Origin: a virus
Taxonomy: Duplodnaviria; Caudoviricetes
Virus record (IMG/VR): IMGVR_UViG_3300038530_000810
Coordinates: 1 to 35,672 of that record
DNA length: 35,672 nt
Reading direction: 5' to 3' (one strand)
Shown: positions 16,999 through 28,271 of the stretch, piece by piece
Layout: the number at the start of each line of letters is the position of its first letter
Position numbering within the stretch: position 1 is the stretch's first letter
Position numbers and translations under genes: made by a program
The notes under the pieces: model-generated
What the model was told of the DNA's origin: nothing
Databases searched by the model: none
Seen by the model: only the letters and a program-made list of their open reading frames with translations

Positions 16999-17236
16999 AA
17001 AAAAGAAAATTACAAGCAAAGATTATGGAGAGTTATCGGCTGGAGTTAGACTTTCAACACATGAGAAAGTTTGCGCAGAACGAATGAAAACATTATTTAA
17101 AGCAATAGATGAAATGAGATTAGAAATAAAACAACTAAGAACAGATGTATCAAAAGGGAAAGGAGCAATTAATTTATTAATTATATTAGGTGGACTAGCA
17201 GGAGCTTTGCTAGGCTACTTCAAATGGAATGGTTAG
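16991..17236 (+). CDS. Coiled-coil protein with C-terminal TM helix (possible lysis protein)
   Basis: GAGGGAG RBS; 'HEKVCAER'; hydrophobic C-terminus. Confidence 0.5.
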   Translation: MRKKKKITSKDYGELSAGVRLSTHEKVCAERMKTLFKAIDEMRLEIKQLRTDVSKGKGAINLLIILGGLAGALLGYFKWNG

Positions 17237-19776: not shown

Positions 19777-20021
19777 TGTCAAAAGGTTTACGATCTTGGG
19801 TAAGAGCTAATTGGGTTGACATTGCTAATCCTAAGAAAGGTGGTGGCTTTCCCAAGTGTGGTAGGAGCAAAGGAGAGAAGAGACGTAACTATCCTAAATG
19901 CGTACCTGCTGCAAAAGCTAGAGCTATGACACCTGCACAAAGACGTGCTGCTGTATCAAGAAAGAAAACTGCTGAGAGACGACCAAGAAAAGGTAAGAAA
20001 CCTAATTATGCTAGAACTTAA
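19776..20021 (+). CDS. Basic protein, DUF5872-like ('GL..W....WVDI...CGRS...YPKCVP')
   Basis: 81 aa; motif recognition; last gene of the late operon. Confidence 0.55.
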   Translation: MSKGLRSWVRANWVDIANPKKGGGFPKCGRSKGEKRRNYPKCVPAAKARAMTPAQRRAAVSRKKTAERRPRKGKKPNYART

Positions 20022-20547
20022 TTAGTTCATTATACTCATCCCAAATAGTTTGAGCAGGATCCCAATAATATTTTTGTTGTAGTTTCATTTGTATAGCATA
20101 GTTTACTGTGGTGTGGTCTTGACCAAATATTTTTCCAATACTTGATAAGTTCATTTTATATTTATCATATAAAATATTTTGACAGATGTTTCTTGATCTA
20201 ACTACATCTCTTGATCTTACTTTACCAAGTAAATCTTTTTTACTTACCTCATATCTTATACAAACTTTGTTAATTATAGAATTAAGTATATCTTGTTTTG
20301 GCTTCGAGAACTGATAAAGAATTGGTCTATTAACCCAACTATATTTACTAATTGGTTTTTGCTCTGTTAGTTTGATACCTTTCTTTTTATTTTGTTGAGC
20401 TTGTTTGTAACCATTTATAAAACCATCTTCATATAATTTTTGTTCAGCATCTGTAAAAAGATACCATGCCTTTTTATGAACATAGATAAAATAATTGTTG
20501 CCTTTATCTTTGATATGTTTTTTGCAAATTGTTTTTAATAGAGCCAT
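20011..20547 (-). CDS. Protein with DnaA C-terminal (domain IV) DNA-binding domain
   Basis: 'DLLGKVRSRDVVRSR...LSSIGKIFGQDHTTVNYA' matches the DnaA signature; no AAA+ domain. Confidence 0.8.
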   Translation of the reverse strand: MALLKTICKKHIKDKGNNYFIYVHKKAWYLFTDAEQKLYEDGFINGYKQAQQNKKKGIKLTEQKPISKYSWVNRPILYQFSKPKQDILNSIINKVCIRYEVSKKDLLGKVRSRDVVRSRNICQNILYDKYKMNLSSIGKIFGQDHTTVNYAIQMKLQQKYYWDPAQTIWDEYNELIKF

Positions 20548-20590
20548 AGAATCCCCTCGGTCTTTGTTGTTTTTTTTATAATTTTAATGC

Positions 20591-20749: not shown

Positions 20750-20912
20750 CCTTCTCCTTTTTCACTTTGGTGAAGTCTATCTTTACTCCAGTAACTTCAC
20801 ATTCTACTAACTCTCCCTGTGCGTTGGGATCAGCAGCCTTTTCAACACTCTCAAATCTTTCAGACAAAATAAAATTTGCCTCGCCTGATTTAATTCTAAT
20901 ATAATTACTCAT
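20691..20912 (-). CDS. Hypothetical protein
   Basis: 73-aa ORF; AAGGA RBS; overlaps its neighbours. Confidence 0.55.
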   Translation of the reverse strand: MSNYIRIKSGEANFILSERFESVEKAADPNAQGELVECEVTGVKIDFTKVKKEKDGQVTTTTPKTQGFASKET

Positions 20913-21204
20913 CTTTATCCTTTTTGTCTATAGTTTTTTTATGTAGGTTTTTAGCCATTTTTGTATAGATTTCCAAGTCATCATAGTTATCACTCTTAAA
21001 TTTTTTTGTAGTCCTAAATAATTTTAACCCCATCATAAGTTGCGCAACTTGATGTGGTTGTATATCATCTTTTAAAATATCATGCAAAATAACATTGAAT
21101 ATTATTGCAAGTAATCTGAAATTCTCATCATAATCACCATAATCTTTTTGGCGATCTGCCATAATTTTTTTTATTTTTTGTTCGTTGAGGTCTATTGTTG
21201 TCAT
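20905..21204 (-). CDS. DUF6378-like protein
   Basis: 'RQKDYG..DENF...QVAQLMMGLKLFR...DNYDDL..Y'. Confidence 0.65.
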   Translation of the reverse strand: MTTIDLNEQKIKKIMADRQKDYGDYDENFRLLAIIFNVILHDILKDDIQPHQVAQLMMGLKLFRTTKKFKSDNYDDLEIYTKMAKNLHKKTIDKKDKDE

Positions 21205-21213
21205 AAATTAGGG

Positions 21214-21276
21214 GATGAGGCAGAGAAAACAACTAAAGAGAGAGCCGAAAGGATGACTCAAAAACTCCGCCTCATC
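21214..21276 (-). ncRNA. Putative structured antisense sRNA (C4-like architecture)
   Basis: 12-bp outer stem GAUGAGGCGGAG/CUCUGCCUCAUC and 5-bp inner stem, each with a G-U pair on the minus strand; unpaired segments complementary to several early-gene RBS regions. Confidence 0.6.
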
Positions 21277-21278
21277 AG

Positions 21279-21310
21279 ACATAAGTCTTATAAATAATTA
21301 CAACTTATGT
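21279..21310 (-). other. Hairpin immediately 5' of the putative sRNA
   Basis: ACATAAGT/ACTTATGT 8-bp stem plus inner TGTAA/TTATA. Confidence 0.45.
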
Positions 21311-21315
21311 TCTTG

Positions 21316-21624
21316 TTATTTAGCATAAGAACCCGGTTTTGCATAAGGTTTTTTGTATGCAAATTTTGGTGTTCCTCCACCTCCTGAACCTTGAGAGGGA
21401 GATTTTTCATTTGGTGTTAAACAAATTGTCAAACCACCTGTCGGTTCACCATTCTCAGCTAATTCGTCAAAACCAGCTTGGCTGTACCATTTACCATTTA
21501 TCTCAACGCCAATAGTCCAGTTCTTATCTGGTCTTTTTAAGTTTGGCGGTGCAACATAACTTGGTTGATTAGGTGCAGTTCTTTTCTCGTTTGGTATGAG
21601 TTTAATATATATTTTTTCACCCAT
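21316..21624 (-). CDS. SSB-like (DUF736-type) protein
   Basis: Likely start 21624 (AAGGAG RBS); 'NEKR...QPSY...INGKWYSQAGF'; follows exonuclease and annealase-like genes. Confidence 0.45.
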   Translation of the reverse strand: MGEKIYIKLIPNEKRTAPNQPSYVAPPNLKRPDKNWTIGVEINGKWYSQAGFDELAENGEPTGGLTICLTPNEKSPSQGSGGGGTPKFAYKKPYAKPGSYAK

Positions 21625-22282
21625 TTTTTTTTGCTCCTTGATTGTTAAGTTGTAACATCCTAACGTCATAACGATCCATCAAATCTCTATAAACCGCAGG
21701 ATGTCTTGTTAATGCAACATTGAACTCTTCCGCAAAGGAAACATTTTTAATGTAATGTAACCTCGTTGGATGTTTTGCTTTTGATATAAGTTCAATGATG
21801 TGTTCTACTGGTGTACCCAACAACTTAACTTTTGCGAGAGATGCTATATAAGTCATTCCCGATACAGAGTTAGGATGTTCAATTACATCAGCACTTCCTC
21901 TTTCTTTTAAAGGTATGCCTATGTGGTCATACTCCTCTTTTGAGGTAATGTTATCATCCATTACACCAAAGAAAGATAAAGCTCTTGATAAGCTAAAAGT
22001 TTCAGCACACTCAAATGAATTGGGTTTGTTTCTGAAAACTTTAGCATGTCCGGTTGATAGTATTAAACCATCTTTATCTTTTATTTCTGTGTAGCCGACA
22101 TAAAAATCATCAAAAGATTTGATGCTAGTTTTTATACCTATCTCGCCTACAAACTCTTCAATAAAATATTTGATTTTACTTGCAGCTTTGATGCAACTTT
22201 TACCTGTCTCTGGATCCATGTAAGTTCCATCTTCTTTGCACTTATCTACTACTTTTGCTATTCTTAATTTTAAATTTTCCAT
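21617..22282 (-). CDS. Putative single-strand annealing protein (Rad52/Sak-like)
   Basis: 'STGHA...FECAETFSLSRALSFFG'; lies after the exonuclease. Confidence 0.5.
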   Translation of the reverse strand: MENLKLRIAKVVDKCKEDGTYMDPETGKSCIKAASKIKYFIEEFVGEIGIKTSIKSFDDFYVGYTEIKDKDGLILSTGHAKVFRNKPNSFECAETFSLSRALSFFGVMDDNITSKEEYDHIGIPLKERGSADVIEHPNSVSGMTYIASLAKVKLLGTPVEHIIELISKAKHPTRLHYIKNVSFAEEFNVALTRHPAVYRDLMDRYDVRMLQLNNQGAKKNG

Positions 22283-22312
22283 AATATTCCTTTAGTTGTT
22301 TTTTTCATTTAT

Positions 22313-22425: not shown

Positions 22426-23322
22426 TTATCCCCACAATTTTTTAATTATTTGTAGTTGTTCTTTACTTGCATCATTCATGGTCCAATGTGTAATGTCAGG
22501 TCTTTCAACTAACTCAGCCATACGCATTGGATCACCATTACTTAATAAAAGTAATCTTTGTATAGTCTTAGCCTTCTTAATCATTTGGTCTAAGTTATAA
22601 TCTAAATAATCTTTTGATAGTTTTTCATGTGTGTCATCAAAAATAATAAAGTCTTTATCGTTTGCGTAAAATAAAAATGGAGTCTTGTTGCTAGCCTTTT
22701 TATAAAAGGCAACTTGAGGTATGTTCTCTTCATCTGGTTCTTTTGGTAATGTTTGAGTATATATTTTTAAATCACCTTTAATAAATTTTGCAGTAGGTGG
22801 TTTTGTTTTACACTCAGCAAAATCATAATCGGTTTCAAAATCCACACGACCAGTTATTCCTATAATTAAATCTTCAAGTATCATGCTTACATATCTCTCA
22901 CATGTTAGTTCTTTATCTTGAAATATATTTTTAACCGCAGCTAAAATGTTTGTGATTGTTTCATGTATGTGTTGTTCTATTTGTTCTCTTATCTTTTTAT
23001 CGTTATCATCGTATGGTTCTTTAAGATATTTATTGTATTCAAATTGAAATACTTTTTTGTAATCTCTTTCTAATATTTCTTTTCTATCAGCTCCCTCAAA
23101 ATAATACTTACCAATTAATTTTTGCGCTACATTATTAGCACAGCTACCAAAGCCAAGTTTATATCTCTTCTTGTCCTTTCTTCTTTGATCCTGTTTTCTA
23201 CAAAAATAATCTACTATCCACATTGAGATAGGTTTGTATCTTTTGGAGAGCTGAGAAAAACTAAAATGATCTAAGCCTTCGCCACCTGATAAGAGCTTAA
23301 ATATTTCGTTTGGTTTTTTCAT
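22426..23322 (-). CDS. PD-(D/E)XK exonuclease (RecB/lambda-exo-like)
   Basis: 'HFSFSQL', 'GRVDF...ECKT', 'QVAFY'; AAGGAG RBS. Confidence 0.75.
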   Translation of the reverse strand: MKKPNEIFKLLSGGEGLDHFSFSQLSKRYKPISMWIVDYFCRKQDQRRKDKKRYKLGFGSCANNVAQKLIGKYYFEGADRKEILERDYKKVFQFEYNKYLKEPYDDNDKKIREQIEQHIHETITNILAAVKNIFQDKELTCERYVSMILEDLIIGITGRVDFETDYDFAECKTKPPTAKFIKGDLKIYTQTLPKEPDEENIPQVAFYKKASNKTPFLFYANDKDFIIFDDTHEKLSKDYLDYNLDQMIKKAKTIQRLLLLSNGDPMRMAELVERPDITHWTMNDASKEQLQIIKKLWG

Positions 23323-23378
23323 AGTTGTTTTACTCCTTATAGTCTATTATATACCAGTTTGTCTAGTGTTTTTTTTTA

Positions 23379-23407
23379 TTGATTTAACTTGCCAATATGG
23401 CTATAAC
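23379..23407 (+). promoter_or_regulatory. Sigma70-like rightward promoter
   Basis: TTGATT-17 nt-TATAAC in the divergent intergenic region, upstream of the RBS at about 23418. Confidence 0.5.
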
Positions 23408-23426
23408 AAGGCAACCGAAAGGATTT

Positions 23427-23651
23427 ATGAGACTCAAAGATTGGATAAAAAAGAAAGGTTATAGTTATTCAGAAACAGCAAATGTTTTGAAAATACATAA
23501 TTTTAACCCAGCAACAAACATTATTCGTTATGCCAAAGGTGATCGTATACCTCACCCAGATTTTATGTTGAAGATAAAAAATGGCACGAACAATGAAGTT
23601 CAACCAAATGATTTTTATGAAGAGTACTGGGAAAAAAATAAAAAAGTTTAA
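23427..23651 (+). CDS. Cro-like HTH transcriptional regulator
   Basis: Start 23427 after GAAAGGA; 'MRLKDWI...RYAKGDRIP...TNNEVQPNDFY'; first gene of a divergent operon. Confidence 0.7.
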   Translation: MRLKDWIKKKGYSYSETANVLKIHNFNPATNIIRYAKGDRIPHPDFMLKIKNGTNNEVQPNDFYEEYWEKNKKV

Positions 23652-24071: not shown

Positions 24072-24659
24072 GTGAGTGTTAAAAAATATAAAGTAAAAAT
24101 ATGTAATAGAAAGGATGTAAAAGACTTCATAGAAACTTGGCATTACTCTAAAAATATTAATGGTCTTAAATCTAATTATTGTTTTGCATTACTTGATAAC
24201 AATAATCTTATTGGTGCTATTATGTATGGACAAATTGCTATGGCAAATGTTTGGAAAAAATATGTATCAAAAGAAAAAGATTTAATTGAACTGCGTAGGT
24301 TATGTTGCATAGATAATACACCCAAGAATACTGAAAGTTATTTTATAGGTTTTACTTTGCGTTGGTTAAAAAGAAACACAGATCACACTAAAGTTATTAG
24401 TTATGCTGATGAAACTTATAATCATCAAGGTATTATTTATAAAGCTAGTAATTTTAAACATCAAGGCATGACAAATAAAGGTAAGGTTATTGTTTATAAT
24501 AACAAACTATATCATGACAAAACTATTAGAACTAAATATAATGGTAAGATTAAACCATACGCACAAAGAATTAAAACTGCATTAGATAATGGGAAAGCAT
24601 ATTACAAAGACACACTTGGTAAACATATTTATATTTATGAATTGAGGAAACATGGCTAG
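24072..24659 (+). CDS. Mom-family (GNAT-fold) adenine-modification protein
   Basis: 'WHYS', 'ELRRL', 'PKNTES', 'ISYAD...HQGIIYKASNF'; GTG start. Confidence 0.75.
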   Translation: MSVKKYKVKICNRKDVKDFIETWHYSKNINGLKSNYCFALLDNNNLIGAIMYGQIAMANVWKKYVSKEKDLIELRRLCCIDNTPKNTESYFIGFTLRWLKRNTDHTKVISYADETYNHQGIIYKASNFKHQGMTNKGKVIVYNNKLYHDKTIRTKYNGKIKPYAQRIKTALDNGKAYYKDTLGKHIYIYELRKHG

Positions 24660-26784: not shown

Positions 26785-26969
26785 TTTTTACAACTCTTTA
26801 AATAGCTTTGTATTTCTCTGACCATTAGTACACACATACCAGCAAAAACATTCCATCGTTTTACCTCAGATTTTAAAACCTTGTCTGTCTCTAAATCCTT
26901 TTGAAACCTAGCCATAAATGTATTGAATCTTTTTTGGTACTTTTTAATTGCTTTATCTTTTGAGTTCAT
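26781..26969 (-). CDS. Hypothetical protein
   Basis: 62 aa; GAGGGGG RBS; TAATG coupling. Confidence 0.55.
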   Translation of the reverse strand: MNSKDKAIKKYQKRFNTFMARFQKDLETDKVLKSEVKRWNVFAGMCVLMVREIQSYLKSCKK

Positions 26970-27127
26970 TATTCCCCCTCGTTTAGCCAGTTAGGCAAGC
27001 CATAGCTCATAGCCATGACCCCGCCAAATGTTATTAATAAACCCACAACAAAATCAAAATGAATTGCTAAGATAAAACCTAAAAAGGCTGTAACAAAGCC
27101 AAGCAATAAACAAAGTAAATTTTTCAT
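26969..27127 (-). CDS. 52-aa two-TM protein, not in the ORF track
   Basis: MKNLLCLLLGFVTAFLGFILAIHFDFVVGLLITFGGVMAMSYG...; GGGAG RBS; ATGA overlap. Confidence 0.6.
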   Translation of the reverse strand: MKNLLCLLLGFVTAFLGFILAIHFDFVVGLLITFGGVMAMSYGLPNWLNEGE

Positions 27128-27618
27128 TTTATTAGCTCCCTTCTTTTTTTATTTATCCAAAATTTAGGGTCTAGCCTGTAGTTATTTGCAGCTAGCTCCT
27201 TTTCAGTTACAATGACAAAGTTAGTACGTTCACAGTTGCAAGCCTTCCTATATGGCAAGGGGTCAACCATTGAACCGATATTATTATTACCTGTGGCTTC
27301 AAACTTATTATAAAAATCTTCAATATTATTATAAGTTGCTTGAGCTGTTACAACTTTAAAAGTTCCTGAAATTAAATACAGTTCTTTTAAAAAGTCCCTG
27401 TAACCATGCCAACAGACAGCGTTTACTTTTTTTCTTGATCCATCTTTATTTCTTGAAAATCCTAAACGCTGATATTTTTTAGATGTTCCAAGTTTTAATT
27501 TAACTCTATGACAATTACCTGATACTTGGTTCATATCTAAATCAATTCCAAGTTTACCAGCTATAGACCATAAGCTACTCTTAAATTGCCAAATGTTTTT
27601 AGTGTTATATATTTTCAT
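27124..27618 (-). CDS. Hypothetical early protein ('AVCWHGYRDF', 'NIGSM..P....ACNC')
   Basis: 164 aa; GAGG RBS; ends in an 'NYRLDPKFW' motif. Confidence 0.6.
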   Translation of the reverse strand: MKIYNTKNIWQFKSSLWSIAGKLGIDLDMNQVSGNCHRVKLKLGTSKKYQRLGFSRNKDGSRKKVNAVCWHGYRDFLKELYLISGTFKVVTAQATYNNIEDFYNKFEATGNNNIGSMVDPLPYRKACNCERTNFVIVTEKELAANNYRLDPKFWINKKRRELIK

Positions 27619-27635
27619 TTTTATACCTCATAGTT

Positions 27636-27751
27636 GTTTTATGACTTTGAACGTCAAAAGAATTTTATTAACACCAAATTTCAATCCTTTGTTATCCTAT
27701 CACCATCAAAAGTCGGGTGTTGGTTTAAAATCACATTCAAAGTCATATAAC
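27636..27751 (-). other. Long hairpin in the leader of the 27618 gene
   Basis: TATGACTTTGAA (27640-27651) / TTCAAAGTCATA (27736-27747), plus inner ATTTTA/TAAAAT and AACACC/GGTGTT stems. Confidence 0.6.
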
Positions 27752-27826: not shown

Positions 27827-27967
27827 ATGCGGTGTTAGTAGCGGTATGTTTTAGTCCGAAGTGAACACCGCTAAATAGATTTATCCGAATGGGTGTTAAT
27901 CTCCCAGCGTGATAATCTGAGAAGTGCGGTGTTAGTAGCGGGGAATGACCTAACCAAAGCACCGCAT
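27827..27967 (+). ncRNA. Putative structured leader/ncRNA with 17-nt direct repeat
   Basis: TGCGGTGTTAGTAGCGG at 27828 and 27925; complementary AACACCGCTA (27864) and GCACCGCAT (27959); GC-rich against the background. Confidence 0.5.
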
Positions 27968-27992
27968 AAAAAACAACAAGGAGTAATATAAA

Positions 27993-28271
27993 ATGATTAA
28001 ATCATTACAAGACCTTAAAAAAGTAAATAAATTATGGTTCTCACCGAGTAATAAAAAGTTTTTTAATGATATAAATTATAAACTTTTAACCGGTGGTAAA
28101 TCAAAAAATAAGTTTTTAATTCAACACACTTACAGATTTTCAGATATGTTTGAAGGAGTTAAAAAAGCTGTTTATTTAATTAAACCAATTACAATAGATG
28201 GCAAGATATTACCAAGCATTCAAACAGTTGAAACAATAGAGAAAGTTAAACAATACTTAAAAATGAATTAA
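27993..28271 (+). CDS. Hypothetical early protein
   Basis: 92 aa; AAGGAG RBS; 'WFS....KFF' motif. Confidence 0.6.
   Translation: MIKSLQDLKKVNKLWFSPSNKKFFNDINYKLLTGGKSKNKFLIQHTYRFSDMFEGVKKAVYLIKPITIDGKILPSIQTVETIEKVKQYLKMN

Follow-up and report, generated by a model that had tools for sequence, protein, structure and literature searches.

On comparative sequence grounds, the hairpin analysed here represents an RNA family not catalogued before, the co-evolution of which with early translation starts is supported by statistics and by a single-base change. As a structure it is conserved and near-universal in the lytic subgroup of HTVC010P-type pelagiphages. Its open loop is complementary to early starts of its own genome and changes in step with three of them, and it is likely to be an antisense RNA that turns those genes down. 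An RNA of this distribution co-evolving with three early starts would offer a concrete control point for the timing of infection; cultured systems exist (HTVC010P, Greip and Skadi on HTCC1062), and natural compensatory variants can serve as test pairs.

Genome context of the hairpin

The window (the whole stretch of DNA analysed, 35,672 nucleotides) is a complete-looking virus record of 35.7 kb, the early region of which matches the Pelagibacter phages HTVC203P, HTVC034P, HTVC010P and Skadi, and it is an HTVC010P-type pelagiphage of the lytic subgroup. This type is given as the second most abundant pelagiphage group known in the accessible text of PMC12753301. According to the available part of PMC8477408, HTVC010P-type phages have no RNA or DNA polymerase gene and are split into a lytic subgroup I, devoid of integrase, and a temperate subgroup II with integrase and XRE genes. 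The original prediction had described a phage without obvious CI or integrase, and indeed no match to an integrase, a CI or an antirepressor was obtained among the 58 ORFs of the window. The leftward operon comprises, in this order, the genes for a nuclease, the single-strand annealing protein (SSAP), a 102-aa SSB-like protein and DUF6378, followed by two small genes and the gene with the DnaA_C domain. Together with a divergent operon that opens with a Cro-like HTH gene, and with a late block, this is the HTVC010P-type layout. The genes and parts of the element are as follows:

23427-23651, plus strand: Cro-like HTH gene, so labelled from HTH_3 matches in 11 of 23 homologues
22426-23322, minus strand: nuclease gene, first of the operon, homologues annotated as nuclease
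21617-22282, minus strand: SSAP gene
21316..21624, minus strand: SSB-like gene (102 aa), named from its position and a beta-rich prediction
21277..21313, minus strand: small hairpin rich in A and U, located between the stop codon of the SSB-like gene and the element (fold)
21214..21276, minus strand: hairpin RNA element, 63 nt (fold and conservation)
21265..21276, minus strand: 5' arm of the outer stem, pairing with 21214-21225 (fold, covariation)
21260..21264, minus strand: 5' U-run of the loop, found in 35 of 35 representatives
21242..21259, minus strand: inner 5-bp hairpin, with the b' loop (anti-SD-like) at 21247-21254
21226..21241, minus strand: a' segment, ending in G plus a U-run, as in 35 of 35 representatives
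21214..21225, minus strand: 3' arm of the outer stem, ending 9 nt upstream of the DUF6378 start
20905..21204, minus strand: DUF6378 gene, directly downstream of the hairpin, with a 9-nt leader without SD
20011-20547, minus strand: DnaA_C-domain gene (PF08299)

The SSB-like protein gave no family match in a profile search, and its predicted structure (AlphaFold) was of low confidence (pLDDT 52.6). The region 23331-23427, between the nuclease and Cro-like genes, is the divergent promoter region. A Mom-like DNA modification gene was found in the middle operon at 24072-24659 (PF25680, E 8e-34), and its best DNA matches were to Klebsiella, Geobacillus and Bacillus phages, not to pelagiphages. A long fold with two 20-nt direct repeats (27827-27967, -49.9 kcal/mol on the plus strand) precedes the gene at 27993 (92 aa). 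It was found only in one near-identical contig, and the close relatives L003, L012 and L044 diverge at about 27821, so that a variable insertion seems likely.

Fold of the element

The minus strand folds as had been predicted from its letters, into a 12-bp outer stem and a 5-bp inner stem with one G-U pair in each. The energy of this fold (-24.2 kcal/mol, z -4.88) was equalled by none of 200 shuffled sequences, and the plus strand reached -17.7. One copy of the hairpin is present per genome, and across relatives the size of the element ranges from 45 to 96 nt. The CC(C/U)U core was unpaired in 72 of 74 distinct elements. The two-loop, C4-like form that had been put forward was found in 52 of these 74, in which an inner hairpin holds the core, but it is not general: the inner hairpin is missing in the other 22, and a single open loop is present in HTVC024P, HTVC204P, HTVC100P, Greip and Lederberg.

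Other variants were seen as well. The HTVC010P-like clade (L033 28206-28301, L169-L248) has a longer form of about 85-96 nt that begins with GGU; its inner stem covaries, and it has an anti-AUG bulge and an additional anti-SD segment. In L087, L092, L094 and L075-L090 the inner loop and the 3' strand each contain an anti-SD-like segment, and in L087, L092 and L094 the one on the 3' strand pairs with the DnaA_C leader. Small hairpins resembling the one at 21277..21313 are visible by eye in relatives.

A promoter of the hairpin's own was discarded, as no conserved -35/-10 was found before the stem in the representatives. A plus-strand translation start within the hairpin was dismissed by eye, since it lacks SD spacing and conservation. 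The features of an intrinsic terminator are absent, most relatives having no U-run after the outer stem, and the terminator-like score of the inner hairpin is reached in the window at the rate of chance (2 found, 1.7 expected).

Rfam scans (cmscan) gave no match for the window (E<=1) or for the element of the window and HTVC010P (E<=10), with no score near a gathering threshold, in agreement with the view that the RNA was apparently undescribed. No description of the hairpin was found either in the literature searched, which was mostly without subscription papers and included the accessible parts of PMC10504331, PMC12753301, PMC11066056, PMC5737381 and PMC2864571. The terms 'non-coding' and 'antisense' do not occur in the available text of PMC8477408. 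Four supplementary files of PMC10690425 gave no match, and the motif may be among the unnamed candidates of that work.

Conservation among relatives

Each of the 10 cultured subgroup-I genomes examined carries the element behind the SSB-like gene, and so does every scoreable locus of the first set, in which L058 and L084 were picked up by a model search and L026 is truncated. A further 169 IMG/VR loci were then scored, of which 3 were too short and 1 had no SSB call; a stem of at least 9 bp was present in 165 of the 166 scoreable ones. When only the loop and two pairs were specified in the search, stems of at least 11 bp were obtained in 63 of 64 loci, and 61 of the 64 lay directly behind the SSB-like gene. 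Two scans of genome contigs gave no prophage or host locus. The element was also absent from the temperate HTVC028P and from 29 loci related to its nuclease (XRE match in 22, equivalent region covered in 26), a search in which a strongly diverged form could be missed.

Stem covariation, one of the checks originally proposed, gave a positive result. In an alignment of 36 sequences, itself fitted to the stem model, 94.4% of the cells were paired and double changes occurred at 8 of 9 pairs; the shuffled control reached 70.2% and slid registers 41-58%. The sense strand was the better fold in 36 of 36 elements, and 26 of the 36 stems contain an internal G-U pair. These G-U pairs and the preference for one strand speak against a single-stranded DNA signal for the neighbouring SSB/SSAP recombination module, a reading suggested by the fixed position behind the SSB-like gene. 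A DNA signal offers, moreover, no rationale for co-variation with translation starts (see below), and we consider it highly improbable.

Complementarity to early translation starts

All six complementary sites named in the original prediction exist in the window. They are listed here together with one additional site:

20551..20573, minus strand: predicted a and b sites before the DnaA_C-domain gene, rank 1 of 56
23415..23438, plus strand: predicted target at the SD and start of the Cro-like gene, rank 2, on the divergent transcript
22290..22302, minus strand: predicted target before the SSAP gene, a perfect 13-nt a complement, rank 3, co-variation not replicated
26971..26981, minus strand: predicted target at the SD of the gene starting at 26969, rank 4, not named before
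23322..23331, minus strand: predicted a site at the nuclease start, 10-nt complement, the nuclease start being tracked in most own-versus-foreign tests
27631..27640, minus strand: weak predicted a site before gene 27124-27618, 10 nt
27970..27983, plus strand: weak candidate site upstream of gene 27993-28271 (8 nt and additional wobble pairs), rank 15 of 56

The 56 starts of the window were ranked by pairing energies that include a correction for accessibility (opening cost); one middle-gene start of the window is one base off in this ranking, and this same start was omitted from the leader counts and the energy contrast given below. The expectation that early starts would be found among the best pairings was borne out at the top of the list, occupied by DnaA_C (-18.5), Cro-like (-16.3), SSAP (-13.2) and the gene at 26969 (-12.7). 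The nuclease ranks 8th, 27618 10th and 27993, a putatively early gene, 15th. As a group, the 21 early and middle starts outscored the 35 late ones (p 0.003). At 20551-20573 the a' segment is predicted to pair upstream and b' on the SD, with G-U pairs, and at 23415-23438 a pairing of 10 nt is followed, after a bulge, by 7 nt that cover the AUG. Sites with a alone pair weakly, the energy being -8.6 kcal/mol at 37 C and -12.7 kcal/mol at 15 C. The a 10-mer occurs in 5 copies over both strands, one of them the hairpin itself, against 0.8 expected. The motif had also been reported missing from late-gene leaders, and this holds for the leaders themselves, with an 8-nt complement in 0 of 35, but an 11-nt a match lies inside a late gene at 17128.

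The comparison was extended to 11 complete genomes, using GenBank gene starts for the comparison genomes. Perfect complements of at least 8 nt are carried by 47 of the 162 early leaders, by 6 of the 73 middle ones and by 11 of the 422 late ones, and in the opposite orientation complements were present in just 5 of the 162 early leaders. The control with shuffled loops supports the enrichment in the pooled set, where the mononucleotide mean was 26.7 (0 of 1000 shuffles reached 47) and the dinucleotide mean 32.7 (5 of 1000), but taken singly only 2 of the 11 genomes stood out from their shuffles (p<=0.05). Composition thus accounts for over half of the leader matches. In 7 of 11 genomes the energy contrast between early and late leaders exceeded that of the shuffles; HTVC010P and HTVC034P showed no such contrast.

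A presumed 16S-tail motif alone separates early from late leaders in some genomes (AUC 0.41-0.75), and AAAGG is commoner in the early leaders (68 of 162) than in the late ones (54 of 422), so the core points to an 'anti-SD' character only and is no phage-specific evidence. GGAG shows the reverse distribution (18 of 162 early, 104 of 422 late). A general anti-SD mimic of the 16S tail, titrating SD-led host mRNAs or ribosomal proteins (host shut-off) and matching phage leaders only secondarily, would agree with a core left unpaired in nearly all elements and resembles the anti-SD loops of the cuckoo RNAs described in the accessible text of PMC4615179. However, the a' segment tracks phage leaders and the GGAG-type late leaders of the phage go unmatched, which makes such a mimic very unlikely in our opinion.

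Two further observations concern the leaders. In the own-versus-foreign comparison of 11 genomes, the complementarity of late leaders was somewhat lower with the loop of the same phage than with foreign loops (p>0.95), possibly a sign of avoidance. The 7-nt SD type complementary to the loop core is present in 6-16 copies in 10 of the 11 subgroup-I genomes (Greip has 1) and is absent from both strands of HTVC028P (L104), whose early leaders are mostly GGAG.

Co-variation of the loop with the leaders

Pairs of each RNA with its own leaders were compared with foreign RNA-leader pairs. The target tests omit L058, the DnaA_C match of L017 was dropped (wrong ORF), and L026 is truncated. All p values given here are optimistic, because the loop types cluster in the phylogeny and the tests were run with several windows and metrics. 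In the first run the Cro-like (p 0.0016) and SSAP (0.036) leaders gave a signal, and DnaA_C (p 0.23) and the nuclease (p 0.13, several nuclease starts being wrong) did not. The second run used rule-based starts, scaling per RNA and 12-16 clade representatives. Over three windows the nuclease gave p values of 5e-5, 4e-4 and 0.06 (the last in the -30..+15 window), the Cro-like gene 0.004-0.018 and SSAP 0.008-0.027; a 73-aa gene reached 0.018 in one window only. DnaA_C was null in this run (p 0.10-0.46), and so were the 52-aa gene, SSB, the replication initiator and a late gene. Neither reversed, nor reverse-complemented, nor shuffled loops produced a signal in the own-versus-foreign test.

A held-out test inside the single-loop clade (5 loop types) was null (p 0.58). 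A second held-out test, fixed beforehand for nuclease, Cro-like and SSAP, covered about 20 new loop types and is only partly independent, because these types fall in clades already seen. The nuclease (0.0048), the Cro-like gene (0.0051) and DnaA_C (0.0066) gave a signal in it, whereas SSAP (0.55) and SSB (0.60) did not. When the data were collapsed to 8-10 a' classes, a step chosen after they had been seen, the values were 1e-4 for the nuclease, 0.003 for the Cro-like gene and 2e-4 for DnaA_C, with SSAP (0.31) and SSB (0.89) again null. SSB, the 52-aa gene and the replication initiator showed no tracking of the loop in any run in which they were included. The co-variation of loop and target expected from the proposed targeting of early starts is supported for three genes; it was not seen for SSB, for SSAP, whose early signal did not replicate, or within the single-loop clade. 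These comparisons indicate that a' tracks the leaders of the nuclease, Cro-like and DnaA_C genes in most tests.

Single-base evidence comes from clade D. Three of its loci combine the loop sequence AAUCCUUUCU with AGAAAGGAU in the DnaA_C leader, and four combine AACCCUUUCU with AGAAAGGGU, on a background identity of 96.5%, so that a single loop base and its exact partner in the leader change together (3 versus 4 loci). This swap is probably a single evolutionary event. In Lederberg, a' is a perfect 9-nt complement spanning the AUG of its own nuclease gene, and the a' segments of HTVC010P-like and HTVC034P-like phages find their matches immediately before the Cro SD of their own genomes, in sequences that differ between the two.

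These results also bear on the possibility that the hairpin serves the next gene, in processing, stability or translation entry, and that the leader matches arise from composition together with concerted evolution of a repeated leader motif or protein-binding site. In 34 of 35 representatives the distance from the end of the stem to the next ATG is 8-17 nt, in many cases with no SD in between; this position, the compositional share of the matches, the null single-loop-clade test and the null SSAP and SSB results would all fit such an element. However, the loop is the complement of the motif and not the motif itself, and it is located on the better-folding strand. The null controls with reversed loops and the exact compensatory swap in clade D are also difficult to reconcile with this explanation, which we regard as quite unlikely.

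Proposed mode of action

On balance we favour, by a modest degree, a processed antisense RNA that would damp early translation. Because no conserved promoter precedes the stem, the element is likely transcribed with the leftward operon (nuclease-SSAP-SSB), and a host enzyme, perhaps RNase P or RNase E, would release it from the early mRNA by cutting at its 5' foot. The covarying stem would hold open the U-run, the anti-SD-like core and the a' segment, which could seed on the A-rich leader while the core covers the SD or the AUG. Such pairing would block ribosome loading at early starts; that it represses rather than activates is inferred from its position. The likely role would be a delayed negative feedback, limiting synthesis of the nuclease, Cro-like and DnaA_C proteins as the RNA accumulates. 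The nuclease leader appears to be little more than an a site, judging from promoter-like hexamers read by eye. In several relatives the leader of the nuclease mRNA is apparently only 5-10 nt long, also read by eye.

Metatranscriptome contigs from 8 runs of 5 studies covered parts of the operon in 8 of 8 cases and bridged the hairpin in none of the 8. Upstream contigs of one study ended at 21266 (two contigs), 21279 and 21399, those of the other studies at 21228, 21303, 21312 and 21348; these ends are no evidence of processing, because the places differ between studies and stalling of reverse transcriptase would explain them equally well. A contig edge at 23331, near a promoter read by eye, is discounted on the same grounds.

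One of these contigs, which runs from the SSB-like gene 49 nt into the hairpin (to 21228), would agree with a hairpin that is never cut out of the early mRNA. As its 3' end or an internal segment, it would fold back onto the starts of its own operon, in the manner of the icaR 3' UTR. The nuclease, SSAP and DnaA_C starts indeed share the operon with the hairpin, which has no promoter of its own. Against this, the Cro-like start, on a transcript of the opposite strand, is tracked by the loop as well, and the stem, closed and with its ends free, is more in keeping with release. We consider attachment in cis unlikely. Since the Cro-like target is on the divergent transcript, pairing there would take place in trans, and it is from this that release of the proposed antisense RNA is inferred.

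A wider and doubtful proposal is that the RNA, made from the leftward promoter, takes the repressor's part in a lambda-like switch without a CI protein. Silencing of the Cro-like gene of the divergent operon, together with the nuclease and DnaA_C genes, might allow 'strictly lytic' pelagiphages to halt infection while SAR11 cells are starved and to keep out superinfecting relatives, the immunity type being determined by a'; the temperate subgroup, which lacks the RNA, would use XRE and integrase instead.

Comparison with known RNAs

In S. aureus icaR, the 3'-UTR pairs with the 5'-UTR of the same mRNA. That pairing concerns a single gene in cis, whereas one of the tracked targets of the hairpin is on a divergent transcript. 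Among phage RNAs, the P4 CI RNA is grouped with C4 as a known comparison system.

According to the available part of PMC4615179, the cuckoo (CcsR) RNAs of Alphaproteobacteria also expose a conserved anti-SD-like loop on variable stems, and for them, too, both global and specific repression are under discussion, but they are encoded on bacterial chromosomes as groups of 2-4 neighbouring hairpins with a C-rich loop of 9 nt that is fixed in each. Identity with them was rejected, as the present element has one copy per phage, a different, U-rich and variable loop that tracks phage leaders, and no Rfam match. The same text describes RNAIII and RsaE of S. aureus, sRNAs with C-rich loops which, left unpaired, block several ribosome-binding sites; these are host-encoded, have their own promoter and show no sequence match to the hairpin.

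By analogy, the hairpin may work like C4 of phages P1 and P7 (RF01695; accessible parts of PMC5320573 and PMC12197685). C4 is likewise a short structured RNA within its own early operon, and in the available text of PMC5320573 its b' covers the ribosome-binding site while a' binds upstream and provides specificity. The same geometry, b' on the ribosome-binding site and a' upstream, is found at the DnaA_C site of the window by computed pairing and a' co-variation. Homology with C4 was not borne out. C4 folds into three stem-loops (P1-P3) of about 77 nt and the element has one stem with no or one inner hairpin in 45-96 nt; it gave no Rfam match, its several predicted targets lie on two transcripts, and none of them is ant or icd. 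As to processing, C4 is cut by RNase P at a GGW stem foot; here GGU begins 29 of 74 elements, mostly of one clade, and the window element starts with GAU. C4 controls an antirepressor for lysogenic immunity, whereas the element is present in the lytic subgroup and absent from the subgroup with integrase and XRE. It is not filed as C4 because the model match, the three-stem structure and the lysogeny role all fail. The described C4-type phage antisense RNAs serve lysogeny, and a multi-target RNA limited to a lytic lineage would extend this class.
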